Assembly: GCA_017470165.1 (NCBI GenBank)
Contig: JAFUEX010000024.1
Span: forward strand, 75,398-139,397
Source of the DNA: Alphaproteobacteria bacterium
GTDB taxonomy: Bacteria; Pseudomonadota; Alphaproteobacteria; RF32; CAG-239
Direction of reading: 5' to 3'
Length of the DNA: 64,000 nt
The translations under genes and the position numbers were made by a program. The notes under the pieces were generated by a model that was not told the origin of the DNA, did no database searches, and was given only the letters and a program-made list of their open reading frames with translations. Numbering within the stretch: the first letter of the stretch is position 1; each line of letters opens with the position of its first letter. Shown here in pieces: positions 2,537-31,164 of this stretch.

Positions 2537-3586
2537 TTACTTCTTTGCAAAACGCTCTTGAGCTCTTTGAGCCAGAGTTTTTGCGGTTTTGTTAACTGCA
2601 ACGGTGCGGGTATTGCTTACGCCGTTATAATCGTTGCTGCGTTTTTCCAAGATTTTCTCTCGGACTTGATCCACAGTCATTTTTGACTGGTCAAACAAGC
2701 GAGCTTGTTTGATAGACATTCCTGCTACTTCACAAAGGCCATAGATAGCGTCACGGCGAGAGATACCGGCACGAGCGGCGCGCTTAGAAGACTTGCGTTC
2801 TTCTTTGTCTTCGTCTTCGTCCTCACGGTCCTCTTTGTCTTCGTCGTCTTCGCGATCTTCTTCGTTTTCAGGAGCATCTTTTGTGGGATCTTCTTCATCG
2901 TCGGATCTGGTTTCCTCATCGATTTCATCTTCGAAGTCTTTGATTTCGTCCTCGTCCTCGCGTTTGGATCTTTTGACCATTTTTTTCTCCTTAGTTGAGC
3001 TGCGAACAGTGATAACGCAATCGCTCGTCCGCGTTTCCGCGCGAACGGTAGCCTTTGCATCCGCAGGAACTGTCACAGCACTCAGTTCCAACGGTGTCCA
3101 TTTGACGGCGCGGAAGATTTTTTCTCCATTTTCTTCATAAACCTCATATTCCTCAACGGTATATCCGACAGAAATATTGCGGATAATGCCCTGAGTGACG
3201 AGGTTCCACACCTTGTCAATCTTTTCGTCGTCCTTTCCAAAGCGGATAAGTGCGCGACCTTCGCCTTTTTCTTCGTCAATCCATGCTTTTTCGACAACAC
3301 CGAGAACGGCGTCAAGCTCAAACGCGTTATGCATTGCCAAGAACGGCGAACTCCCAGCGTTAAGGCGATCCATGTTGACAGCTTTGGTGGAGACTTCTAA
3401 TTCTTCAGTAAAAGTGCCGAAATCCCAGTTAAATTGTGTTGCTCTGGCTCCGGTAGTCCATACGATTTCAATGGTACGATTTTCGGCGTTGATGCTTTCC
3501 GGGGCGATGAACGCTCTGCGTTGTATTCCGGGAAGTTTTTTTGTTTCTTTGCTCATATTGTCGTATCCTTTTGCTTTTTTCGTCAT
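2537..3586 (-). CDS. Prohead protease (HK97/S78-like) fused to an acidic scaffold-like C-terminal domain.
   Basis: The N-terminal region carries a conserved motif (DRLNAGSSPFLAMHN) typical of caudovirus prohead proteases. The C-terminal 100 aa are extremely D/E/K-rich (scaffold-like). The gene sits between the portal and decoration genes. Confidence 0.55.
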   Translation of the reverse strand: MTKKAKGYDNMSKETKKLPGIQRRAFIAPESINAENRTIEIVWTTGARATQFNWDFGTFTEELEVSTKAVNMDRLNAGSSPFLAMHNAFELDAVLGVVEKAWIDEEKGEGRALIRFGKDDEKIDKVWNLVTQGIIRNISVGYTVEEYEVYEENGEKIFRAVKWTPLELSAVTVPADAKATVRAETRTSDCVITVRSSTKEKKMVKRSKREDEDEIKDFEDEIDEETRSDDEEDPTKDAPENEEDREDDEDKEDREDEDEDKEERKSSKRAARAGISRRDAIYGLCEVAGMSIKQARLFDQSKMTVDQVREKILEKRSNDYNGVSNTRTVAVNKTAKTLAQRAQERFAKK

Positions 3587-3646
3587 TTTTGACTTTCTAA
3601 ATCTAATATAAAATTATTTGATACAAATGTTCAAAAAATTTTTTTA

Positions 3647-5343: not shown

Positions 5344-5489
5344 GATTGCCTCGCATTTCGTATATCTAAAACTATTTTAGTCATTTTTGCCTTAAATGTT
5401 CAAAAAATTTTTTTTATTTCTTGACTATTCTTGTTTTTTATTGATATAATTCTGGCATAAAGTCATTTTTGACTTAAAATTTATTTTGT

Positions 5490-5566
5490 CGCGGGGTGGA
5501 GCAGTTAGTTAGCTCGCTGGTTTCATACTCCAGAGGTCGATGGTGCAAATCCATCTCCCGCAACCA
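5490..5566 (+). tRNA. tRNA-Met (anticodon CAT), initiator-like, encoded by the phage.
   Basis: 77 nt beginning CGCGGGGTGGAGCAG and ending TCCCGCAACCA, similar to E. coli tRNA-fMet. It has a C1:A72 mismatch, a TTCATAC anticodon loop, a perfect T-arm and an encoded CCA. Confidence 0.8.
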
Positions 5567-5660: not shown

Positions 5661-5745
5661 AGGACTGTAGCTCAATGGTAGAGCGTTCTGTGTGCACAGA
5701 TTAAACCGAGCAGTTTGTATGTGGGTTCGACTCCCGCCGGTCCGA
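5661..5745 (+). ncRNA. tRNA-like sequence with a non-canonical anticodon arm; possibly a tRNA pseudogene or decoy.
   Basis: Acceptor, D-arm (GCTC-AATGGTA-GAGC) and T-arm (GTGGG-TTCGACT-CCCGC) are canonical. The anticodon region is a perfect 14-nt palindrome (TCTGTGTGCACAGA), which gives a 4-nt loop. A long hairpin-forming variable region follows. Confidence 0.45.
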
Positions 5746-5883
5746 CCTATTACTTATGTCTGAGAGAACGCCGGTCGGATCGGCTTAAGACAAAACAGCT
5801 TAACCGAAAAGATTGGCAAGGAACACCGGATGGTTGCAAACGTCTGGTGTTTTCTTTTTGACTTTCAAGAAGAACGTGCTCCT

Positions 5884-5953
5884 GGCGGGAGGCTGCTGGG
5901 ACGGTTCCTCGCTCTGCGGTTCCCGTAGCCGGGCTGCGGGTGATTCGCTTTCG
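5884..5953. repeat. Left copy of a ~70-bp GC-rich direct repeat flanking the moron cassette.
   Basis: Shares the 18-nt exact core tgcggttcccgtagccgg and ~70% flanking identity with the copy at 7310-7380. Confidence 0.8.
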
Positions 5954-5999
5954 ATTGCGTATGTCATTCATGGCGCGCGCGGGCGGAGCCTTCCCAGAG

Positions 6000-6042
6000 C
6001 TTTTGCTTAAAGCAAAAGAAAGGTGTCGAATTCGACACCTTT
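6000..6042. terminator. Two adjacent perfect palindromes forming a probable (bidirectional) terminator.
   Basis: The palindromes are cttttgcttaaagcaaaag and aaaggtgtcgaattcgacaccttt. They lie just 3' of the minus-strand small ORF and are followed by T-rich sequence. Confidence 0.5.
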
Positions 6043-6047
6043 GGATG

Positions 6048-6197
6048 TTATTTGCCAATGTTATAGGCTTGGCATGCGGGCTGGTATCCGTGTTCGCACC
6101 GGATCTTGTTTTCCCAAACATCACCGACAATCAGCAAAAAATACATTGCCGCAAAAAATAAAATCATTGAAAAACCGTCTAAGATGTATTTAATCAT
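6048..6197 (-). CDS. 49-aa small membrane protein, paralogous to the ORF at 14018-14167.
   Basis: Translates to MIKYILDGFSMILFFAAMYFLLIVGDVWENKIRCEHGYQPACQAYNIGK, about 70% identical to the 14018 peptide. It is below the 60-aa cutoff of the ORF track. A terminator hairpin lies downstream. Confidence 0.6.
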   Translation of the reverse strand: MIKYILDGFSMILFFAAMYFLLIVGDVWENKIRCEHGYQPACQAYNIGK

Positions 6198-6525
6198 TTT
6201 CTGTAACCTTTTTTAGTGTTGTGCCATCTTAGCTATGAGAAGGTGGCGGACTCAACTAAAGCCGGTTACAGTTTGTAAGGCTTCGGGCTTTATTCAATAT
6301 ATTCGGCCTCTCATCCGCCATAATTTTGGTATAAAAAAACGCCTTCTTCGGGGGCGGTATACCGCTGTAACCTGTTTTAGTATCTACAGTATACACAAAA
6401 AATAGTTAAAAGTCAGTTAATAAATTCATTTTTTTATTTTTTTTGCTTTCCGGGAGTTGAAGCCGCTCGAAAGCGTGGGATTATTTCCGTTCCGGTCTTG
6501 TATTCTCCGCGCTCCCGGAGCGGTT

Positions 6526-7170: not shown

Positions 7171-7309
7171 AACCCTGTGCCTTTTCTTAAAGATAATACT
7201 CCAAGTTTGACTTTATTATCCGATAAAAGTTCTAAAAAGTCAAGCATAAAGTCAAATTTGCCTTATTTTTTTGACTTTATGTGAAAATTGTTTATTGTAT
7301 GGTGCTCAT

Positions 7310-7380
7310 GGCGGGGGCGGCTTGGCGCGATTCTCCGCATTGCGGTTCCCGTAGCCGGAACGCGAGTGTTACGCTTTTGG
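7310..7380. repeat. Right copy of the ~70-bp GC-rich direct repeat.
   Basis: See 5884-5953; same orientation. Confidence 0.8.
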
Positions 7381-12445: not shown

Positions 12446-12530
12446 TTTTCTGCCCTCTTGCCTTATTGTAGTCATAAATGACGGAAAAAGTCAAAAAATA
12501 ATTTGATAATTTTTTTTATATTTTTTTCCA

Positions 12531-12831
12531 ATTCACCGATTTCACCGATTTTAGGGGAATTTTGGGTTATTCCCTTATAGAATTCAAAAGATATACTGAA
12601 AAATTACAAAAAAGTTATAAAATTGGTTAAATCAGTGAATAATGTTAAAAATCAAAGACTTAATCTGTTAAGCAATATAAAGCACACCCCCATTTTTGAA
12701 AAAAAAGTTGCAAAAAACGGTGAAATTAGTCAATCGGTGAATAAAAAAATTGCAAAAAATCTGATTTTTTAAAACCTTAACTCAAAAATCCGGCTTAAAA
12801 ATGGATGATTTTTCCCTTAAAATCGGTGAAT
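12531..12831. promoter_or_regulatory. Divergent regulatory region with iterated ATTCACCGATT motifs.
   Basis: Direct copies at 12531-12541 and 12541-12550. Inverted copies (AATCGGTGAAT) at 12732-12742 and 12821-12831. A degenerate copy at 12629-12640. A GGGAAT-n8-ATTCCC palindrome at 12555-12575. Confidence 0.5.
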
Positions 12832-12904
12832 TTTCGCATTTTCGAATGCGTAAAAGTCAAAAATGACTATTTACTTGACTTTATCTTGCGGTTAGATTAT
12901 ATTA

Positions 12905-12927: not shown

Positions 12928-13125
12928 GGGGTTTTGGCAAGCTGAAGACCTAAAAACTTGATCAATACGGCTTCAACACCCCGTCAGAGTGTATTTTTTA
13001 TGCCTGTTTGGCGGATGAGAGCTGTAAATATATTGAATAGCAGCCAAAGCCTTTATTGATCGGCTTTTAGTGAGTCCGCCGCCTTGCTCAATCTCAAGCG
13101 GTAACATCTAAAGAAAGATCAATAA

Positions 13126-14282: not shown

Positions 14283-14537
14283 ATGCCAATTATCGCTCGT
14301 TTTTATGGTCTGGTTATTAAAATGTTTTTAATCGGTAGCGAACATAATCCGCCGCACATTCACGTTGTTTATGGCGAATTCAGTGCTCTGTATAACATTC
14401 AGACGCTGGAATTAATGGAAGGTGATTTGCCATCACGCGCTGCTGCTATGGTTAAAGAATGGCTCAGTATTCATAAAGATGATTTAATGGAAATGTGGAA
14501 CAGCCAAAAATTCAAGACTTTGCCACCATTAAAATAG
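14283..14537 (+). CDS. DUF4160-family protein.
   Basis: 84 aa. The N-terminal pattern (IIARFYGLVIKMFLIGSEHNPPHIHVVYGEF) matches the DUF4160 family, which is usually paired with DUF2442. Confidence 0.55.
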   Translation: MPIIARFYGLVIKMFLIGSEHNPPHIHVVYGEFSALYNIQTLELMEGDLPSRAAAMVKEWLSIHKDDLMEMWNSQKFKTLPPLK

Positions 14538-14548
14538 GGAGGTGTCCG

Positions 14549-15037
14549 ATGTTTATTAAAATTAAAAAAATAGAGATTCTGCCGGATTATGCTATCAAGG
14601 CAACCTTTGATCATGATGTTGTCAAAACCTATGATTTTAAGCCTTTATTTGATAAATATCCGGTATTTGAGCCGCTTAAAAATGAGACGTTTTTTGCAAA
14701 CGCTGTTATTGATTGCGGTGGTTATGGTTTGATGTGGACTGATGATATTGATATTGATGCTGGGGAACTTTGGTATAACGGCATAACGACGCTTGATACC
14801 GAACAGGATATTGTAAATTATCTTAATGCCGTTGTTAATGAAACAGACACCAAGCTGTTTATCAAAGCTTTAAAAGATATTGCAAAGTCAAAAGGTGTTA
14901 ATGATTTGGCAAAAAAAATGGGAGTAAATCGTGAAAGCCTTTATAAATCGTTAGACGGTGAGCGCAAACCCAAGTATGAAACAATCGACAAGTTTCTACG
15001 GGCAATCGGCATGAAAATAACATTTTGTCCGGCATAA
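14549..15037 (+). CDS. DUF2442 domain fused to an HTH addiction-module-antidote-like domain.
   Basis: GGGAGG ribosome-binding site before the ATG at 14549. The N-terminus (IEILPDYAIKATFDHDVVKTYDF) is DUF2442-like. The C-terminus (KDIAKSKGVNDLAKKMGVNRESLYKSL) is HTH antidote-like. Confidence 0.55.
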   Translation: MFIKIKKIEILPDYAIKATFDHDVVKTYDFKPLFDKYPVFEPLKNETFFANAVIDCGGYGLMWTDDIDIDAGELWYNGITTLDTEQDIVNYLNAVVNETDTKLFIKALKDIAKSKGVNDLAKKMGVNRESLYKSLDGERKPKYETIDKFLRAIGMKITFCPA

Positions 15038-16946: not shown

Positions 16947-19414
16947 GTTTCTTCACGAAGTTTTATGCCTACATATGCTTTTTCTCCGCGTGGCGTTGTG
17001 CCCTTGGTTATATGCCTTTCATATAACCGGCGACCGAGCTTGTTTTTGCTGTATGGCGTATGACCGGCATCCTGACACCATTTTTTATAGTTTTCGTAGA
17101 GGCTGGCGCATGAGATTGTCGCGCCCACAGATTTAATTGTGTTTTCTTCAAGATAACTGCCAAGAACGTCCATTTCCGAGCGGTATTCCTGCGTTGCTTC
17201 GCGCACCGCATCAGGTGGGTTCAATCCTTGCCGTTGCCATTCTAAGCAACCCTTGACCGCCCACGCCAGAATGCCGGGTAGCTCATTTTTCAGCTTCGTA
17301 ATCAGGAGTTTGTCTTTGAATGGTCCGTCAATTGGCGCATCCGGATCTGTCTTGTCATAAAATTTCGCTTCAAATGGTATTAAAAGCAAACGCCGCCAGA
17401 TGCCGTCGTCGGTGCCGCGGATTTCAGGTTTATGGTTTGTGGCCAGCCACAGCTTAAAATGCGGCGTAAATTCGAACGGATTTTGATGTAAATTTCGCGC
17501 CGTTATTGTCGTGTCGCCGGTCGCCTCTTTGATTAGGCTTTCATCAAGAGCTCGGTCGGCTTTTGTTTCCGACGCGGTGACGAAACGGGCAGAGCGGAGC
17601 ATTGCAAGGAACGGGTTAGCATCATTTGCGCGACCTGTTTCCATAAACGCATCAGCTTTGGTTTTGACGTGATAATCATTCATTAAGGCTTGGACGGTGT
17701 CCAAAAATGTGGATTTACCATTTGAACCTTTACCATGGAGCACAAACATACATTGCTCTCTGGTATCGCCGGACAGACTGTAACCGATGGCACGTTGCAC
17801 AAAGCTGATCATGTCCGTGTCATTGTTTAAGATTTCCCGCAGAAATTTCTGCCATGCCGGACATTTTGCTTTTGGATCAAATGCAACCGTGCTTTGTTTT
17901 GTGCAATAAAAATCCGGGCTATGGTTCATGAGCTTGCCGGTCGTCAGGTCAATGACGCCATTTGCACAATTAAAGTAGAGCTGATCGCAATCCAGTTTTT
18001 TGATGTCTACGCATAAATCCGGCTGCGCTAATTTGAGCGCGTAGTTAATGCGTCCGCCTTCTTGGCTCTTTTTGCACCAGTTCTTTATGCCGGATTTTTG
18101 ATGTTCTTCGACATAGTCGGCTTCTTTGGCTATATCGAGGGCGGTTCTTTTGGCCATATTGATAACGCGCAGATCTGCGTGCTCGTGTTCCCATACACCT
18201 TTGCTGTAAATTATCCACCCCATACCCGGTGCAAATTTGACTATTTTACCCCAGCGGGTGACAATTCTTTGCGAATTGCCGACGTCGGTTCTCGGCCGAT
18301 ATGCCAATTTTGCGAATATGCTTTCTTCCGGATCCGGATATTCCGGCATCGTGCTGTTATAGTATTCTTCCGGTGGCTCAGGTTCTGCGTCGCGGGCATC
18401 TCGGACAGGTTGTGCTTCGTTGATCATCTTAACAACAGCATCGGCTCCTACTTCCTGCAGAAGCTGATTACTGTCCTTTATCGATAATGGCGGACGTGCG
18501 CACATTAGGTTTGTGAACCCACGGTCCAAAAATCCGGCCAGAATTTTATTCATGGTTTCGTCCGGCTTGCTTCCCGGTTCGTCGTTGTCGCGGACGACGA
18601 TTAAGGCGCGTCCTTTAGGCTCATCAATTTTGCTCATGAAGTTGATGCCCATTGTGCACCATACTTCCATTTTTGTTGTTTGCGCGAGTGTGAGTGCGTC
18701 TTCAGGTCCCTCGGTTAATAGGACAGGTCCATTCGGATCGCTTCCTTTGATTTTAATAGGACAACCGGCAGGAAAGCCGTTGGTGCGTTTCTTAACGGCA
18801 AGATTTGCCTTATGCCCTTGTGCGTCCAGATATACACTTTGAACCGCCCGGATGACGCCTTTATCATCGCGCGCGATACAGACCAGCGATCCGCCCCCAC
18901 GAGACTTGTTTGGCCGGAATTTAAACTGATTAAGTGGGGCACCTGTAATGCCTCGGCTTTTGAGGTATAATTGCGCAGGAGTGCCGCGTAAATCAACAAG
19001 CTCGGAGGTAATTTTATCAAGTTTTTTCTGTTTCTCCTCATCATATTCGTCTTGCTCCTGTTGCTGTTGCGCGGTGTCAACTGCCGGTCTATCGTATTTC
19101 GGGGTGTATTCTTTTGTTTCCCCGCCTTCCATCCCGAACATTCCAGCCAGTTTGCGGGCTGCTTCTACGCGATCAAGGCGGAACACTTTCGCGCATATTC
19201 CGATTGGATCGCCGACCGGCTCATCTGAAGAAAAATCCGAGCCTTTACCTGTTTTAATGTTAATCAACAAACTTTTTCCAGGGTGTCCGTCCCAATCTCC
19301 GCATTGGAATTCATTTCCAACCCTTTTTCCTTGCGGCAACCAATCCTTGAGTAATCCCTCAAGATTTGCCAAGGCTCTCGCGTTGACCGCTTCAAAATCA
19401 ACCATTCCTGCCAT
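16919..19414 (-). CDS. DNA primase/helicase (Toprim domain plus D5/P4-type SF3 helicase).
   Basis: Toprim-like segment (LLTEGPEDALTL...VRDNDEPG) and Walker A (LHGKGSNGKST). The C-terminal PriCT-like tail is shared with the Bro protein. 831 aa. Confidence 0.75.
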   Translation of the reverse strand: MAGMVDFEAVNARALANLEGLLKDWLPQGKRVGNEFQCGDWDGHPGKSLLINIKTGKGSDFSSDEPVGDPIGICAKVFRLDRVEAARKLAGMFGMEGGETKEYTPKYDRPAVDTAQQQQEQDEYDEEKQKKLDKITSELVDLRGTPAQLYLKSRGITGAPLNQFKFRPNKSRGGGSLVCIARDDKGVIRAVQSVYLDAQGHKANLAVKKRTNGFPAGCPIKIKGSDPNGPVLLTEGPEDALTLAQTTKMEVWCTMGINFMSKIDEPKGRALIVVRDNDEPGSKPDETMNKILAGFLDRGFTNLMCARPPLSIKDSNQLLQEVGADAVVKMINEAQPVRDARDAEPEPPEEYYNSTMPEYPDPEESIFAKLAYRPRTDVGNSQRIVTRWGKIVKFAPGMGWIIYSKGVWEHEHADLRVINMAKRTALDIAKEADYVEEHQKSGIKNWCKKSQEGGRINYALKLAQPDLCVDIKKLDCDQLYFNCANGVIDLTTGKLMNHSPDFYCTKQSTVAFDPKAKCPAWQKFLREILNNDTDMISFVQRAIGYSLSGDTREQCMFVLHGKGSNGKSTFLDTVQALMNDYHVKTKADAFMETGRANDANPFLAMLRSARFVTASETKADRALDESLIKEATGDTTITARNLHQNPFEFTPHFKLWLATNHKPEIRGTDDGIWRRLLLIPFEAKFYDKTDPDAPIDGPFKDKLLITKLKNELPGILAWAVKGCLEWQRQGLNPPDAVREATQEYRSEMDVLGSYLEENTIKSVGATISCASLYENYKKWCQDAGHTPYSKNKLGRRLYERHITKGTTPRGEKAYVGIKLREETWSEFNRGW

Positions 19415-19826
19415 TTTTTAACCTCATTTCATCCATAATTTGTGTTTCTACCAACTCAGGATCTTTGCAGACGATATAAATTCCGCCCATATCCTGAATC
19501 ATCTTTCCGAACCGCTTCTGCTGCTCGGTTTGCTTATACCGACCGTATTTTGTTTCGATATAAAGTGCTTTACCGTCCGGTGCGATAATTCCGGCAATAT
19601 CGCCGGATCCTATCAGACCGAAGTTGACGGGATGAGCTCGGCGGAGCAGTATGTCGCCCGGCTCCGTTACGATTGTTCTGCCCATACCGTCAACAACCCT
19701 CGTTCCGGCTTTCAAATTGTAGCGTTGGCCTTGCCATGCTTGACCGGTATTATTCCGCCAGAGCTTGAGCCACGACTTCGTTCCAAGCTTCAGCATTACT
19801 TTTTTGAGAGTTTCGGTTTCGGCCAT
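19398..19826 (-). CDS. VRR-NUC domain nuclease.
   Basis: PDGKALYIETKYGRYKQTEQQKRF pattern. The typical phage context is next to a primase and an SF2 helicase. Confidence 0.55.
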   Translation of the reverse strand: MAETETLKKVMLKLGTKSWLKLWRNNTGQAWQGQRYNLKAGTRVVDGMGRTIVTEPGDILLRRAHPVNFGLIGSGDIAGIIAPDGKALYIETKYGRYKQTEQQKRFGKMIQDMGGIYIVCKDPELVETQIMDEMRLKNGRNG

Positions 19827-19828
19827 GT

Positions 19829-20173
19829 TTATCTCCTCGACATTAAGAGTTCATCTAGCTCCGCTTCAGCGATGGTGGAGATGTTACCTTCAAGGGCAAT
19901 CTTGGCAAAGAGCTTTACTCTTACCACTTTGCGAAAATCTTGAGGCGTCATAACCTGCGCGTTTGCGCTACACATATCGCTGATTTGGATTTTGCCGTCC
20001 AGCATCTCTATGCATTTGGCAAGTTTGATGTTGGCTCCGGTGTCTATTCCATAAACTCCGGCTCCGGCATAGAAGTCCATATTATGGACTGCATAATAAT
20101 CGCCTTCGTTCAATCCGAGGACTGGACAGTCTGCGTCCAACTTCATAATTTTTATTTTATTGTTATCAGGCAT
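19829..20173 (-). CDS. Hypothetical protein.
   Basis: 114-aa ORF in the early operon. Confidence 0.35.
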   Translation of the reverse strand: MPDNNKIKIMKLDADCPVLGLNEGDYYAVHNMDFYAGAGVYGIDTGANIKLAKCIEMLDGKIQISDMCSANAQVMTPQDFRKVVRVKLFAKIALEGNISTIAEAELDELLMSRR

Positions 20174-20190
20174 TTGTTTTTTCCTTTCAT

Positions 20191-20442
20191 TTAGATGTTT
20201 AAAGCCTTGCGGTAGGTGTCGACCAAGAGCTCTTGCTCATCCCTATCCGCAGCGTTCATTTTACGCAGTTTTAAGACTACTCTCATAATCTTAACATCAA
20301 ACCCTGCGCCCTTTGCTTCGGCGAAAACGTCGCGGATATCGCTTGAAATGCCTTTCTTTTCTTCCTCTAGACGCTCGATGCGTTCAATGAGACTTGTTAA
20401 TCTATCGACGGCTATTCCGCCTATTTGGTTTTGTTCACTCAT
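20191..20442 (-). CDS. GapR-like DUF2312 nucleoid-associated protein.
   Basis: 83 aa with the GapR family signature (IERIERLEEEKKGISSDIRDVFAEAKGAGFDVKIMRVVLKLRK). Confidence 0.6.
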   Translation of the reverse strand: MSEQNQIGGIAVDRLTSLIERIERLEEEKKGISSDIRDVFAEAKGAGFDVKIMRVVLKLRKMNAADRDEQELLVDTYRKALNI

Positions 20443-20821
20443 TTGTATCTCCTTTTCTTGTCATGAGTATTTTTAATAAGGCATCAAATGCCTCGGCCGG
20501 TTTTGGCCTTTTCTTTCCGGTGGCTTGGATTAACCCTTTATATTTGAAGTAACCTTCCACCAGTAGAAACTCGTCTATTTGAATTGCGTCTGTCAGGTAT
20601 GCCAATGACTTCCGCCATTCGTTTTCGCAGTCTGCTTCGAACATTTTTACAGCTTCCTTCCGATCCCTGTTGCGATGCTCTTGCGCATATATGTTTTCCA
20701 CTTTTCCCGCAAACGCGTCACACCATGCTTGTCTTAAAATTCCGGCTATCAAGTTTTCCTCTGGTGTTTCGAAGAGGAACTTTGCGGGAAGGTGTGTTTT
20801 GTGTCTGCGGTGTTTTGTCAT
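20435..20821 (-). CDS. Hypothetical protein.
   Basis: 128-aa ORF. Confidence 0.35.
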   Translation of the reverse strand: MTKHRRHKTHLPAKFLFETPEENLIAGILRQAWCDAFAGKVENIYAQEHRNRDRKEAVKMFEADCENEWRKSLAYLTDAIQIDEFLLVEGYFKYKGLIQATGKKRPKPAEAFDALLKILMTRKGDTNE

Positions 20822-22260: not shown

Positions 22261-22563
22261 GTACAACCCCTGTCTTTTAACCCTGCCTTTGTTGCTCAAT
22301 TGTGGCGGGCGGCACAGGGTTATTGTGTTTTTGTGCTGATCAAGCACTTCCGCCCGTCGAAATAGACTATAAAAGTATTTTTTGACTTTTGCAAGCACTT
22401 TTTTTGATTTTAATAAACTTTTTTTGCTGTTATTATACTTTATCCTTATTTTTCGGGGTTTTATATGTGTGTAAAGTCAAAAAAATTTCCGTTTTATGAC
22501 TTTTTCATTGAAAAAATCAAAAAATAGAGTTATATTGAGTCAAACTGTTAAAAGGAGAAAAAT

Positions 22564-23133
22564 ATGACACGTAATACATTAAACCAAGGTCCGAAGCGCG
22601 ATGTCAGCCCTCTGGGTAGAAAATTGCACCAGCTTATTCGTGCTGCGAACTATGATTATATTAAAGATTTTGAAAAAGAATCAGGGGTTCGCCCCGATTC
22701 GATTCGTCGCGTGATCGGCGGATATACCAAAAGTTTGCCATTTTCCGACCTACAAAAAGTTGCAACAACTCTTAAAATATCCGTTCAAGAGCTTATGACC
22801 GGATCGGCTGATGGCGAAGCGATTGCCACTTGCAATCTCGTTCCGGGCGCAAAAGAGCCATGTTGGTATCAGGTACATTCTGACGAAATGGCTCCAACAC
22901 TCAAAAGTGGCGACAATGTCCTCGTAGATACAGGCATCAGGACAGTTATTGAGGCCGGTATTTATTTGCTTGGAACACCATCCAGCACGGCATTCCGACG
23001 TATTTCTCACAACCCTGTTACTGGCAAATTGCGGGTTGAGGCCGACAATAAGACTTATTCATATGTTGAGGAAGTTGAGGCCGAAAAATTATCTATTAGA
23101 GGTCGTGTAATCGGAATCTTCCACCGAATTTAA
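22564..23133 (+). CDS. CI/LexA-like phage repressor (HTH plus S24 peptidase).
   Basis: N-terminal HTH and a C-terminal S24-like segment (SDEMAPTLKSGDNVLVD). Transcribed divergently from the early leftward operon. Confidence 0.65.
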   Translation: MTRNTLNQGPKRDVSPLGRKLHQLIRAANYDYIKDFEKESGVRPDSIRRVIGGYTKSLPFSDLQKVATTLKISVQELMTGSADGEAIATCNLVPGAKEPCWYQVHSDEMAPTLKSGDNVLVDTGIRTVIEAGIYLLGTPSSTAFRRISHNPVTGKLRVEADNKTYSYVEEVEAEKLSIRGRVIGIFHRI

Positions 23134-23292
23134 TAAAAAAATACCCCTTTAAAAGCCCTATTTTAAGCCGTTTTTGGATTTTTTTTCTAAAAACGGTATT
23201 TTTTTCTTGATTTTCTGTTTTAAATTGATTAAAGTCATTTTTGACGATTAAAGTCATTAAATACTTTTAACAGTTTAACACAGGGTTATTAA

Positions 23293-27499: not shown

Positions 27500-28118
27500 G
27501 GAAATCACAGCCGAAATCATCCGCAGATTGCGCTTAATGCCGGAACATAGGAGAGATATTTATTTCCCTGAATTCCGCTGGTGCGCAGGTGTGGCTGGTT
27601 CGCGCCGTGCAGACGCATTCTTTATTCTTGCGCGTCCGCCTTATTTTTCCGTTACCTATGAAGTTAAAGCAAATCATTGGGATTTTGAGCGGGATCTGCA
27701 GAACGCAGAAAAGCATAGCAAAGCTCGGCAATACTCAAACATCTTCTATTATGCGGCTCCGGCCGGTGCTATTCGTCCGGAAGAGTTACCGGAGTGGGCT
27801 GGCTTGGTTGAGTTTGATTTATCAATTCTGGCCGATGAATACACACAAGGTGCAATGGTTGTCAAGCAAGCCCCGCTTCATGACAGAGAGGATCCGGGTT
27901 GGGATTTGATCGCAAGCATTGCAAAACGGCTTCAGGATCCTGCGTTTCGTTTCGAGGCTCACGGTATGCACCTGATTTCAAATGATCAGCTCATGCAGTT
28001 GAAGTCTTTAATCGGTCAGCAGGTCCAAGCAAATAAAATTCTGCAGGCCGGATCCTCGGCAATGATGTCGGCTTTGGCTATTGTCAGCAAAATTTTTAAC
28101 CGAAAGGACAAGCTATGA
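27489..28118 (+). CDS. MmcB-like PD-(D/E)xK family protein.
   Basis: AGSRRADAFFI...YEVKANHWDFERD...NIFYYAAP resembles the MmcB/DUF1052 pattern. Confidence 0.4.
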   Translation: MKDKEITAEIIRRLRLMPEHRRDIYFPEFRWCAGVAGSRRADAFFILARPPYFSVTYEVKANHWDFERDLQNAEKHSKARQYSNIFYYAAPAGAIRPEELPEWAGLVEFDLSILADEYTQGAMVVKQAPLHDREDPGWDLIASIAKRLQDPAFRFEAHGMHLISNDQLMQLKSLIGQQVQANKILQAGSSAMMSALAIVSKIFNRKDKL

Positions 28119-29495
28119 CAGAGATTGTTTTTGTTGACTTGTTCTCCGGCATCGGCGGGTTTGCGGAAGGTTTCCGCCGGGCTGGATTAAAATTCAGATA
28201 TCACGCTTTTTCCGAAATAGATAAAAACGCGATTAGTATTTATAAAAAACACTTTCCTGAAGCAAAGGAGTTAGGCGATGTCCGAACAATTAGAGATTTT
28301 TCAACCATCAGAAATCAACGGGGGGGGGTGCCGCTGGTCGTCACTTTCGGATTTCCTTGTCAAGATCTATCAGTTGCTGGCAAAAGGCGAGGACTTGAAG
28401 GCTCTCGAAGCGGGTTATTCTTTGAAGCAATGCGGGTTATCCGAGAATTGCAACCCGATGTTTTTATCTTTGAAAACGTCAAAGGTCTTCTCTCAAGTAA
28501 CAAAGGACAAGACTTTGTCCGCTGTCTGCAGGAAATTGCCGACCTTGGGAATTATGACGGGCAATGGCAGCTTGTCAATACTAGCTGGATATTACCCCAA
28601 AATCGAGAGCGGATTTACTTTGTCGGCACTCTTAGAGGACAAACCAGACGCCAAGTATTTCCTCTCGTCGACAGCGGTCAGTCGGATTCTCGGTTACAAG
28701 GACAACGAGCTTGCTGCCTTACAGCAAGATATTTCCAGTCAACCGGCGGCGGAACGTATTTTATTGAACGTAAACAGCATAAAGAAGGCAACGATGAAAA
28801 ATCCGCAAGGAACAAGAATTAACACGATTGACGGCAATTCTGTCGCTTTGCAGTCATGCGCTGGCGGCATGGGTGCAAAAACAGGACTGTATTGCGTTCC
28901 GCGTGGCAAGCGCGACGGCGGTTTTAAGGACGGTGACACTTGTCCGACAATAACCGCGAACGCCTTTCAGCAAAATAATTTCATCGTTCCCGTTTTAACG
29001 CCTGATCGCGTAAATAAAAGGCAAAATGGACGCCGCTTCAAAGAAGCCGGAGAACCTTCATTTACCCTGACAACGCAAGATAGACACGGCATTTATGACG
29101 GCATTGATATCCGTCGTCTGACACCTCTTGAATGTGAACGTCTACAGGGTTTTCCGGACGGTTGGACGGAGACCGGCGAAAATGGGCAGAGAATGTCGGA
29201 CACGGCACGTTATAAGGCACTCGGCAACGCGGTCAGCGTGTGCTTTCCTGAATTGATCGCAAAATCTTTGTTTATGGAGAATGAAATGACAGCAGACGTT
29301 ATTCAGTTCCCTCAAAAGAAAAAGGAGAACTTGAACGCGGTCTATGTCCTTTTGGATACGGTCCGCAAAATGCACGATGAGGACGGCTATCGCTTTGCTT
29401 CCTCGGAGTTGAAAGAAAACAGCCAAGGCAAGGTGGTCTTGACTTTGGTTATGGATAAACCAGATCCGGACGACCTTCCGGACATAACAGCATAG
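28115..29495 (+). pseudogene. C5-cytosine DNA methyltransferase disrupted by a single frameshift near 28640.
   Basis: Frame A has motif I (FSGIGGF), motif IV (GFPCQDLSVAGK), motif VI (ENVKGL) and motif VIII (QNRERIYFVG). Frame B continues with AKYFLS, motif IX (RRLTPLECERLQGFPDGW) and motif X (YKALGNAVSV). A G9 tract lies at 28320-28328. Confidence 0.7.
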
Positions 29496-30147: not shown

Positions 30148-31164
30148 ATGAAAAAAACAGCAGAATTTGTGTCATTAGGGCATCCGGATAAAACAGCGGA
30201 TTTTATTTCGAGTTATGTGCTTGACCGTTTAATTGAGCAGGATCCTCACGTAAAATATGCGGTTGAGGTCATGGTTAAAGATAACGAGGTTATTTTGGGC
30301 GGTGAAGTCAAGGGTAACGTTGAGTTCTCTCTAGCCACCCTTCAAACTTGGATTTATGATGCCTTGGCAAAAATAGGCTATACCGAGGACTATTCAAAGC
30401 GGTGGGGTGTCAATGCCATCAATCCCTTAAAGGTTAACGTCACGAATTTAATCGGTAAACAGTCAGGAGATATCAACCAAGGCGTTGAAGCTGACGGCTG
30501 GGGTGATCAAGGTGTCTTTGTTGGCTACGCTTGCAAAAGTGAAGGCAAAGTCAGCCGAGAGCTCTTCCTTGCGCGTAAATTAAACCACGCTCTCTATGAA
30601 ATGGCCAAAACGAGCGAAAATTTTGGAATTGATATTAAAACGCAAATAACAATGAATGACATCGGCGGTGTCGAAACGGCGATTGTTGCGATTCCCATGC
30701 TCAAAGAGATTGATCTGCGCGACTTTGTCACTTCTGTTCTTGGCGAGGAGCCGGAGAATATCATTATAAACGGGACTGGTCGTTATGTTATGCATTCTTC
30801 TATTGCTGATTGCGGGGTTACCGGTCGTAAGCTCGCTTGCGACTTCTATTCTACAACTTGCGCCGTCGGTGGTGGTTCGCCATGGACAAAGGACGCCAGC
30901 AAGGCAGACGTTTCATTGAATATCCTTGCTCGCAAATTGGCTGTTGAAAATTTAGACGGTGCGCATGAATGCTGGGTTTATCTTTCTTCGTGCATTGGTC
31001 GCGCCGATTTGCCGTCCGTTGAGGTTGTTCGCAAGACTGGCATGGCGATCGGCTATAGAGATGTCAAGATTGGCAAACCGTCAGAAATTATCGAGGAGCT
31101 TGGGTTGAATAAGCCGGTATTCGCCGACTTGTGTGCTCGTGGTATTACCGAGGTTTATAAATAA
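30148..31164 (+). CDS. S-adenosylmethionine synthetase-like protein (short MetK).
   Basis: The N-terminal GHPDKTADFISSYVLD matches the MetK GHPDK signature. 338 aa against ~384 aa for bacterial MetK. Confidence 0.55.
   Translation: MKKTAEFVSLGHPDKTADFISSYVLDRLIEQDPHVKYAVEVMVKDNEVILGGEVKGNVEFSLATLQTWIYDALAKIGYTEDYSKRWGVNAINPLKVNVTNLIGKQSGDINQGVEADGWGDQGVFVGYACKSEGKVSRELFLARKLNHALYEMAKTSENFGIDIKTQITMNDIGGVETAIVAIPMLKEIDLRDFVTSVLGEEPENIIINGTGRYVMHSSIADCGVTGRKLACDFYSTTCAVGGGSPWTKDASKADVSLNILARKLAVENLDGAHECWVYLSSCIGRADLPSVEVVRKTGMAIGYRDVKIGKPSEIIEELGLNKPVFADLCARGITEVYK

Follow-up and report, generated by a model that had tools for sequence, protein, structure and literature searches.

Which regulator is served by a 12-bp palindrome, GTCATTTTTGAC, that recurs along an alphaproteobacterial prophage? 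The question is raised by a stretch of 64,000 nucleotides (positions 75,398 to 139,397 of contig JAFUEX010000024.1, assembly GCA_017470165.1; hereafter the window), in which the prophage occupies bases 1 to ~31 kb and cellular genes (PBP1, phosphoglycerate mutase, LeuRS) are found from ~36 kb. The initial annotation had proposed the operator or promoter element of a phage regulator, such as a late activator or the CI-like repressor. This proposal is supported by the present analysis, and the evidence favours the second option: the 12-mer is probably a high-affinity operator of the prophage's own CI-like repressor, the product of a gene (cI) at 22564-23133. The repressor is favoured because the promoter directly following cI has the strongest site overlapping its -10, because a protein bound at any of the intergenic sites would block or flank RNA polymerase, and because the class of the palindrome switches at early and late sites in step with the residues flanking the CI helix-turn-helix.

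The motif is enriched, occupies fixed positions relative to promoters, is conserved among relatives, and switches jointly with the class of CI. We infer that CI is the binder, that repression is the effect, and that induction needs an antirepressor. The prophage itself carries lambda-type head genes on the minus strand (capsid E, S78 protease, lambda-family portal, and gpA terminase), together with a D5-type primase, a helicase, cI, and an exonuclease/RecT operon.

Occurrence of the palindrome in the window

Read on either strand, GTCATTTTTGAC occurs exactly five times in the 64-kb window (at 2676, 3582, 5462, 12856, and 23234), where ~0.01 copies are expected, and none of 100 shuffled sequences reaches five copies. 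The initial annotation had listed the last four of these, each of which is present where it was placed, had overlooked the copy at 2676-2687, and had rightly called the number far above chance. It had also given a one-mismatch variant at 12471-12482 (GTCATAAATGAC), which is confirmed; two more such variants are found at 5380-5391 (GTCATTTTTGCC) and 7251-7262 (GTCAAATTTGCC). The pattern GTCA-W4-TGAC has six matches against 0.09 expected. Within the ~3.75 kb of DNA between the genes of the prophage, four exact 12-mers are observed, against 0.0009 expected from the base composition of that DNA.

When the entire 64 kb is scanned with a weight matrix, seven intergenic sites and 2676 take the first eight ranks, and a clear gap in score comes next; the matrix is derived from those same eight sites, and the ranking is partly circular. 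All eight sites lie within the prophage, seven of them in intergenic DNA. The frequency of the motif outside the prophage had been suggested as a check, and no copy is found in the 28 kb of host DNA in the window (36-64 kb).

The core of the 12-mer is (A/C)GTCA-W4-TGAC(T/G). Both arms are invariant and have A or C as the next base outward; relative to transcription, the A/T centre faces either way among the sites. These features together point to a DNA site with the symmetry expected for a dimer. The same features bear on the idea that the motif acts as RNA, that is, as a GUCA-loop-UGAC hairpin at the 5' ends of transcripts, for example in the stabilising or processing of mRNA. The sites at 3582 and 5462 do lie just past predicted transcription starts, and the sequence is able to fold into a hairpin of 4-6 bp. 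However, folding is weak (-2.8 to -7.3 kcal/mol), sites in a promoter spacer or ahead of a -35 would not be transcribed from their own promoter, and the arms change as whole 4-mers between classes of phage, alongside a protein (see below). The hairpin is rejected on account of the weak folding, the mixed orientation, and the sites upstream of transcription starts, and is considered extremely improbable.

Register of the sites with predicted promoters

All promoters described here are consensus predictions of the sigma-70-like type. The intergenic sites each stand in a fixed register with such a promoter, so that at least seven promoters, of early and of head genes, are involved, and three of the four architectures observed are represented twice.

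The architecture represented once is an overlap with the -10. The putative operator OL1 (GTCATTTTTGAC, 23234-23245) covers the last 2 nt of the -10 TAAAGT (23230-23235) of a promoter whose -35, TTGATT, is at 23207-23212; this promoter follows the cI terminator and drives the exonuclease/RecT operon. A weaker candidate operator, OL2 (GTCATTAAATAC, 23253-23264), has its centre ~19 bp from that of OL1, and a second site at the OL2 spacing is present in all ten loci compared. A pure late activator does not fit such an overlap with an early promoter's -10.

In the second architecture the site lies 11 nt downstream of the -10. This is the case at 3582-3593, in the leftward protease/scaffold promoter (-35 TTGAAC at 3634-3629, -10 TATATT at 3610-3605), and at 5462-5473, in the rightward promoter of tRNA-Met (TTGACT at 5421-5426, TG-extended TATAAT at 5445-5450), the tRNA starting at 5490. 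In the third, the spacer is 18 nt long, and the site takes up its final 12 nt, so that it touches the -10. An imperfect copy at 5380-5391 (GGCAAAAATGAC on the minus strand) thus fills the spacer of the leftward gpW/portal promoter (TTGAAC at 5403-5398, TAAAAT at 5379-5374), and 12471-12482 (GTCATTTATGAC on the minus strand) fills that of the leftward promoter of the 227-aa gene/terminase operon (TTGACT at 12494-12489, TACAAT at 12470-12465). In the fourth, the site ends 7 nt ahead of a -35 TTGACT. The two examples are 12856-12867, at the rightward promoter of the Bro-N gene (TTGACT at 12875-12880, TATATT at 12898-12903), and the imperfect copy at 7251-7262 (GGCAAATTTGAC on the minus strand), at the leftward promoter of a 214-aa gene (TTGACT at 7243-7238, GATAAT at 7220-7215). 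The initial annotation had assigned its sites to the 5' regions of genes. This needs one amendment: 5462 serves the rightward tRNA-Met promoter, and the leftward gpW promoter has the 5380 variant instead.

With these registers in view, it may be asked whether the 12-mer is itself a promoter element, its TTTTTGAC being a T-rich -35 for the host RNA polymerase or for a phage sigma factor, and the palindrome being incidental. TTGAC(T) is indeed a good -35, and many occurrences of a T-tract plus TTGACT in the prophage are the -35 of predicted promoters. Nevertheless, for four of the five exact copies no -10 is found 16-18 nt away from TTGAC (the sequences being read by eye), the sites lie within or downstream of other, better promoters, and the left arm GTCA is conserved equally with the right arm; moreover, the GTAT/ATAC arms found in another class of phage (see below) are unlike a -35. 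Without a correctly spaced -10 for four of the five copies, the 12-mer is rejected as a -35, and this explanation is judged highly unlikely.

The situation is different for a second shared sequence, the 20-mer AAATGTTCAAAAAATTTTTT, which is found exactly at 3625-3644 and 5394-5413 (0.01 expected). Its reverse complement, AAAAAATTTTTTGAACATTT, consists of a UP-like A/T tract plus the -35 (TTGAAC) of two leftward promoters, that of the protease (3625-3644, minus strand) and that of gpW (5394-5413, minus strand). The arrangement is that of a sigma-70 promoter: upstream of the protease and gpW genes, AAAAAATTTTTTGAAC has a TATATT or TAAAAT hexamer 18 nt downstream of it. The tract and -35 are retained in relatives of all operator classes. 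The initial annotation was correct that this sequence is shared by the two places. The 20-mer is not an operator, but the UP/-35 part of two leftward promoters.

Between cI and the helicase operon the arrangement consists of partial sites. The clusters of AAGTCAA / TTGACTTT that had been pointed out at ~7200-7290 and 22380-22500 are real, and they are a mix of -35 hexamers (TTGACT) and operator half-sites. Candidate half-sites, GTCAAAAA (22476-22483) and TTTTATGAC, occupy 22476-22501, between the pR-like and cI promoters, and are the counterpart in the window of the class-specific half-site arrays present in all relatives. A hybrid site, GTATTTTTTGAC (22375-22386), lies in the spacer of the leftward, pR-like promoter of the helicase (TTGCAA at 22394-22389, TATAGT at 22371-22366); kept across all operator classes, it may belong to the promoter itself and not be a class-specific operator.

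Ahead of the helicase gene, the transcript of the pR-like promoter has a GC-rich leader (22265-22375, minus strand), which is conserved whatever the operator class and shows obvious long-range complementarity (GGGCGG...CCGCCC and AACCCTG...CAGGGTT). No cro-like open reading frame (ORF) follows the pR-like promoter.

The fifth exact copy, 2676-2687, is the only one inside a gene, the protease/scaffold coding sequence, and its function is uncertain. It is half-conserved, the homologous position reading GTCAAAACTGAC in the relatives L001 and L002 and the site being lost in L003-L005. An internal translation start was considered, the ATG of the motif being in frame with the protease ORF, but is rejected: there is no ribosome-binding site, the product would be just 47 aa, and the start is not conserved.

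These positions suggest the following mechanism. A CI dimer would bind the two 4-bp arms across the A/T tract and, where the site overlaps or abuts a sigma-70-type promoter, would keep that promoter off in the lysogen. The promoters so silenced would be those of the leftward exonuclease/RecT operon, the 227-aa gene and terminase, the antisense tRNA pair, gpW and portal, and protease and capsid; those of the Bro-N gene and the 214-aa gene would probably be repressed too. The half-sites between cI and the helicase operon would act in control of the rightward early promoter and in autoregulation.

The tRNA-Met (CAT; 5490-5566, plus strand) is antisense within the leftward late gene cluster. A second, odd tRNA (5661-5747, plus strand), also antisense in the late cluster, has an anticodon that ARAGORN cannot assign and an Rfam score of 40 bits. 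The pair has a strong predicted promoter and a putative operator of its own.

Classes of the proposed operator and the CI-like protein

Relatives of the prophage, numbered here as loci (L001 and so on), were located in IMG/VR contigs, in metagenome-assembled genomes of gut Alphaproteobacteria, and in metagenome assemblies. A DNA-level search of the GenBank phage collection found nothing similar to the prophage; the matches of the CI protein in that collection are just 21-37% identical, the 227-aa protein found no relatives among viral contigs, and a literature search for the motif gave unrelated primer sequences alone. This phage group of gut Alphaproteobacteria is uncharacterised and has no characterised relative.

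At the portal/protease junction of relatives with 66-89% portal identity, the UP-like tract, the -35, the -10, and the 12-mer are retained, and the spacer between them has diverged. The protease promoter and its operator (3582) are conserved in L001-L004 and L009. L001 also retains the tRNA site (L001:3984), the gpW site, and the site of the 214-aa gene (L001:2275).

Ten loci have the gene order helicase - cI - exonuclease. Their helicases are 74-98% identical and their CI proteins 45-68% identical, barring one close pair (88%), and the conserved helicase and exonuclease genes enclose a variable block whose sole ORF is that of CI. The promoter after cI retains its -35 (TTCTTGATTT) and its TAnnGT -10 in all ten loci, and the palindrome over the -10 falls into three classes. 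GTCA-W4-TGAC is found in six of the ten tabulated loci (the window, L017, L020, L021, L023, and L024), and the near-identical L006, which is additional to the ten, has a GTCA-class site too. GTTC-N5-GAAC is found in three (L008, L018, and L022) and GTAT-N5-ATAC in one (L007).

The class does not track overall CI identity: the CI of L021 (GTCA) is 60% identical to that of L018 (GTTC), and just 54% to that of L023 (GTCA). It goes, rather, with the CI residues immediately before helix 2 and after helix 3, the recognition helix. These are (D/E)(Y/R)I and GGYT(K/Q) in the GTCA class, (E/R)TI and GGYKR in the GTTC class, and KHI and GGYVK in the GTAT class. When the class was predicted from the helix-turn-helix before the DNA was inspected, both predictions were right (P0006, GTCA; P0012, GTTC).

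The palindrome class changes jointly, per genome, at the promoter after cI, in the half-site arrays, and at late-region promoters. Arrays of a T-tract plus half-sites matching the class (TGAC, GAAC, or ATAC) are found between cI and the helicase operon in all classes; in L007 this region also has a full copy of its own palindrome, and in the window and other GTCA-class phages it has only half-site arrays plus one hybrid site. In L018 (GTTC), the promoter homologous to that at 12471 reads TTGACT-ttaca-GTTCGATTTGAAC-TATGAT, likewise with an 18-nt spacer, and that homologous to 12856 reads GTTCAAATTGAAC-11 nt-TTGATT, at L018:841. At the counterparts of these two positions, the window and L006 have the GTCA palindrome. 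The GTCA-class homologue of 12856 is L006:134, and the distance to the -35 is 11 nt both in L006 and at L018:841. At the gpW promoter the left half-site varies by phage, being GGCA, GTCA, GTAT, or GTTC, the last in L011 of the GTTC class. L011 also has one GTTC-class site, and L010 has a GTAT-like site ahead of gpW. In L010, L011, and L012, which are phages of the other classes, the late regions have no GTCA-W4-TGAC.

The CI-like protein (22564-23133, plus strand; 189 aa) has an N-terminal XRE-type helix-turn-helix and a C-terminal LexA/lambda-CI-like domain. Its Pfam matches are Peptidase_S24 (4e-8) and HTH_26 (1e-3), and its PHROG match is a transcriptional repressor. The AlphaFold model (pLDDT 82) has as its closest structural matches phage 186 CI, the lambda-186 hybrid repressor, lambda CI, the LexA C-domain, and UmuD'. 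The best match of the full-length model is 186 CI (2fjr, E = 2e-6), and the N-domain matches SinR/XRE. Searches of PDB sequences with CI and a CI profile gave nothing useful, and in particular no detectable similarity to 186 CI.

In a MAFFT alignment with lambda CI, LexA, and UmuD, whose sequences were entered by hand, the SDEM of the CI family stands against G(N/D/M)SM, so that the nucleophile Ser is replaced by Glu108, and its FRR against FKK/VKR, so that the general-base Lys is replaced by Arg145. Both Glu108 and Arg145 are invariant in all 18 homologues. The Ser/Lys pair marks a self-cleaving subgroup rather than repressor function as such, and is lacking in 186 CI too. Since the window CI seems not to have the pair, self-cleavage is unlikely, and the protein is probably a non-cleaving repressor like 186 CI. 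An antirepressor route to induction is plausible on the same ground, the residues for self-cleavage being missing. No alphaproteobacterial LexA box (GTTC-N7-GTTC), which might have provided a link to induction, is found in the window.

Several observations weigh against CI as the repressor acting at these sites. Sites 7-11 nt upstream of a -35 are not at classic positions for repression, and the copy at 2676 lies within a gene. The region between cI and the helicase operon of the window has no full 12-mer, only half-sites and the hybrid site. The class switch represents just two or three independent evolutionary events. In the 20 kb of L017 (GTCA) examined, the full motif is present at the post-cI site alone, so that late-region sites are not universal, and the portal/protease promoter of other-class phages has no clean copy of their own palindrome.

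Some of these points would be accommodated if a different phage regulator (Cro-like, a late activator, or an unrecognised DNA-binding protein) bound the motif, with CI then binding only the half-site arrays adjacent to cI, or elsewhere. The lack of a full 12-mer between cI and the helicase operon is in keeping with this, as is the location of 7251 and 12856 upstream of the -35, which is usual for an activator; furthermore, the phage has many small ORFs without recognisable function. On the other hand, the strongest site is on the -10 of the promoter that comes next after cI, and the variable block contains no ORF other than cI; the motif class tracks the helix-turn-helix residues of CI; and the half-sites adjacent to cI have the same arms as the palindrome. 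The only other clearly variable neighbour, a 128-aa protein by the helicase, does not track the class, being 70% identical between L020 (GTCA) and L008 (GTTC), and is rejected as the binder. Another phage regulator is therefore regarded as unlikely.

A host factor, or a target of DNA modification or restriction, for example by a phage methyltransferase, may also be considered. The phage encodes one N6/N4 methylase, one C5 methylase, and a GapR-like DNA-binding protein. However, a 12-bp site in promoter register whose class switches between close phages fits such a role poorly, and the 28 kb of host DNA is without copies. The GapR-like protein, by comparison of translations by eye, is similar in L006 (GTCA) and L008 (GTTC); as it resembles itself across phages of the two classes, it is rejected as the binder. 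Overall, a host factor or modification target appears a very remote prospect. CI remains the preferred binder.

Two of the proteins just mentioned merit description in their own right. An 83-aa ORF at 20191-20442 (minus strand) agrees in position and length with 83-aa ORFs of the relatives that hit Pfam GapR_DNA-bd, its own PHROG match being a family of unknown function; it has the look of a phage version of GapR, a nucleoid protein of alphaproteobacteria, and all the related loci examined have one. The gene of the C5 cytosine methylase is divided between two overlapping ORFs at 28115-28822 and 28278-29495 (plus strand). In the relatives it is a single gene of 337-390 aa, and the split may represent a frameshift or a pseudogene. 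Adjoining the methylase genes is a SAM-synthetase-like gene (30148-31164, plus strand), of which L017 has one too.

Comparison with known repressor systems and other elements of the prophage

The element is real, its role as an operator is well supported, and its kind is familiar. Three features of a CI-type system are found: an N-terminal helix-turn-helix with a C-terminal LexA/S24-like domain, inverted-repeat operators over the early promoter by the repressor gene (the OL1/OL2 layout in ten loci), and an operator that co-varies with the repressor allele in three classes. The system belongs with immunity of the lambda/186 type, of which it is an uncharacterised member with an unusually dispersed set of operators.

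As in lambda, cI has the leftward recombination operon on one side and the rightward replication operon on the other. Downstream of cI come a terminator and a promoter with a pair of neighbouring inverted-repeat operators. Operator specificity shifts with the repressor allele within conserved flanking genes, and the two-domain fold matches that of lambda CI. In contrast to lambda, the operator of the window is a short 4-4-4 palindrome with further copies at tRNA and head-gene promoters far from cI, single half-site arrays instead of three full operators are found upstream of cI, and the Ser/Lys pair for RecA-stimulated cleavage aligns with Glu/Arg.

The CI of phage 186, the top structural match, is not cleaved under RecA but is inactivated by the antirepressor Tum, and it also uses additional flanking sites, which lie hundreds of bp away from its main promoter. 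With 385 bp between them, 12471 and 12856 recall these distant flanking sites. Similarity in sequence to 186 CI is undetectable, however, and a wheel-like oligomer and an antirepressor, as in 186, would be hypothetical for the system of the window.

Dispersed sites are also a property of the stoperators of cluster A mycobacteriophages (L5 gp71, Bxb1), in which numerous sites, distributed through early as well as late regions, belong to one immunity repressor and the motifs co-vary with repressor alleles (PMC6550527, PMC9283540). Stoperators are asymmetric, ~13 bp long, and bound by a monomer; 20-30 of them are present, oriented with transcription and mostly outside promoters, where they block elongation (PMC6550527, PMC9283540). 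The sites of the window are likewise dispersed over early and late regions, from 2.7 to 23.2 kb, including the head-gene cluster. Unlike stoperators, they are symmetric, both arms being equally conserved, and they are few (eight in the part of the prophage covered) and mixed in orientation, seven of the eight being in promoter register and only 2676 intragenic. A stoperator system is therefore rejected.

In phage P1, one repressor, C1, likewise controls many separate operons through scattered operators. The P1 operators are 17-bp asymmetric sites, in contrast to those of the window, and the repressor proteins are unrelated. The late promoters of P1 are driven by the activator Lpa and are not directly gated by C1.

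The operator layout finds a parallel in Rhizobium phage 16-3, also of an alphaproteobacterial host. Its C repressor has a helix-turn-helix and recognises 4-bp arms with variable spacers (ACAA-N4-TTGT / ACAA-N6-TTGT); dispersed late-region sites are, to our knowledge, not described for this phage. The window and its sister phages also have 4-bp arms with short spacers, GTCA-N4-TGAC in the former and GTTC-N5-GAAC in the latter. The arm sequences differ, and the likeness is one of operator layout. Parts of the 16-3 system have been employed in an expression-vector study (PMC3694467).

A broader and tentative proposal, which we hold to be possible but on balance doubtful, is that control in this prophage is flat. 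One non-self-cleaving CI-like repressor would gate every lytic promoter directly, including those of the head cluster and the antisense tRNAs, with no Q-type antiterminator or late activator. A 186-like oligomer might tie together the dispersed operators (such as 12471 and 12856), and induction would proceed via an antirepressor, possibly Bro-N, and not via RecA. If it is true that the repressor occupies the head-gene and tRNA promoters, a temperate phage with lambda-like head genes would silence its late genes without an antitermination cascade in the style of lambda. A testable regulatory map becomes available for an uncultured prophage family of gut Alphaproteobacteria. The three immunity classes, with their operators and candidate specificity residues, should help in studying the evolution of helix-turn-helix specificity and in predicting superinfection immunity from sequence.

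Other repeated elements were observed in the prophage. The 650 bp that separate the Bro-N gene from the terminase operon contain repeats AATCGGTGAA / AAATCGGT (12530-12560, 12717-12745, and 12813-12835), among them an inverted pair of TTCCCYTAAAATCGGTGAATT; the repeats occur as well at L006 85-110 and L018 795-825. Since they are retained in both GTCA- and GTTC-class phages, they are not CI operators; they may be terminase (cosB-like) sites or the sites of another regulator.

A leader-like element of ~115 nt is present in two copies, at 12985-13100 (plus strand), upstream of the Bro-N gene, and at 6235-6330 (minus strand), upstream of a small membrane ORF (~6195-6049). Each copy is preceded by a hairpin and a T-run, and the two share GGCGGATGAGAG..ATATATTGAATA..AAGCC..CGGCTTT..GAGTCCGCC.CCTT. 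The element has no match in Rfam; it could be a structured RNA leader.

As to mobility and accessory genes, no integrase is recognised within the prophage part of the window, and in the relative L018 a serine recombinase (DUF2924 + Resolvase; 19366-20552) directly precedes a portal gene. A toxin/antidote-like pair at 14283-15037 (plus strand) consists of a DUF2442 protein and an HI1420-type helix-turn-helix antidote, and the relatives are without it.

On the minus strand, the stretch 6440-6520 matches sRNA-Xcc1 of Rfam below threshold (38 bits, the gathering score being 53; E = 5e-4). On the same strand, the 18-mer CCGGCTACGGGAACCGCA is common to two GC-rich non-coding stretches, one at 7330-7365, after the terminase gene, and the other at 5900-5935, after the 5750-6130 region.

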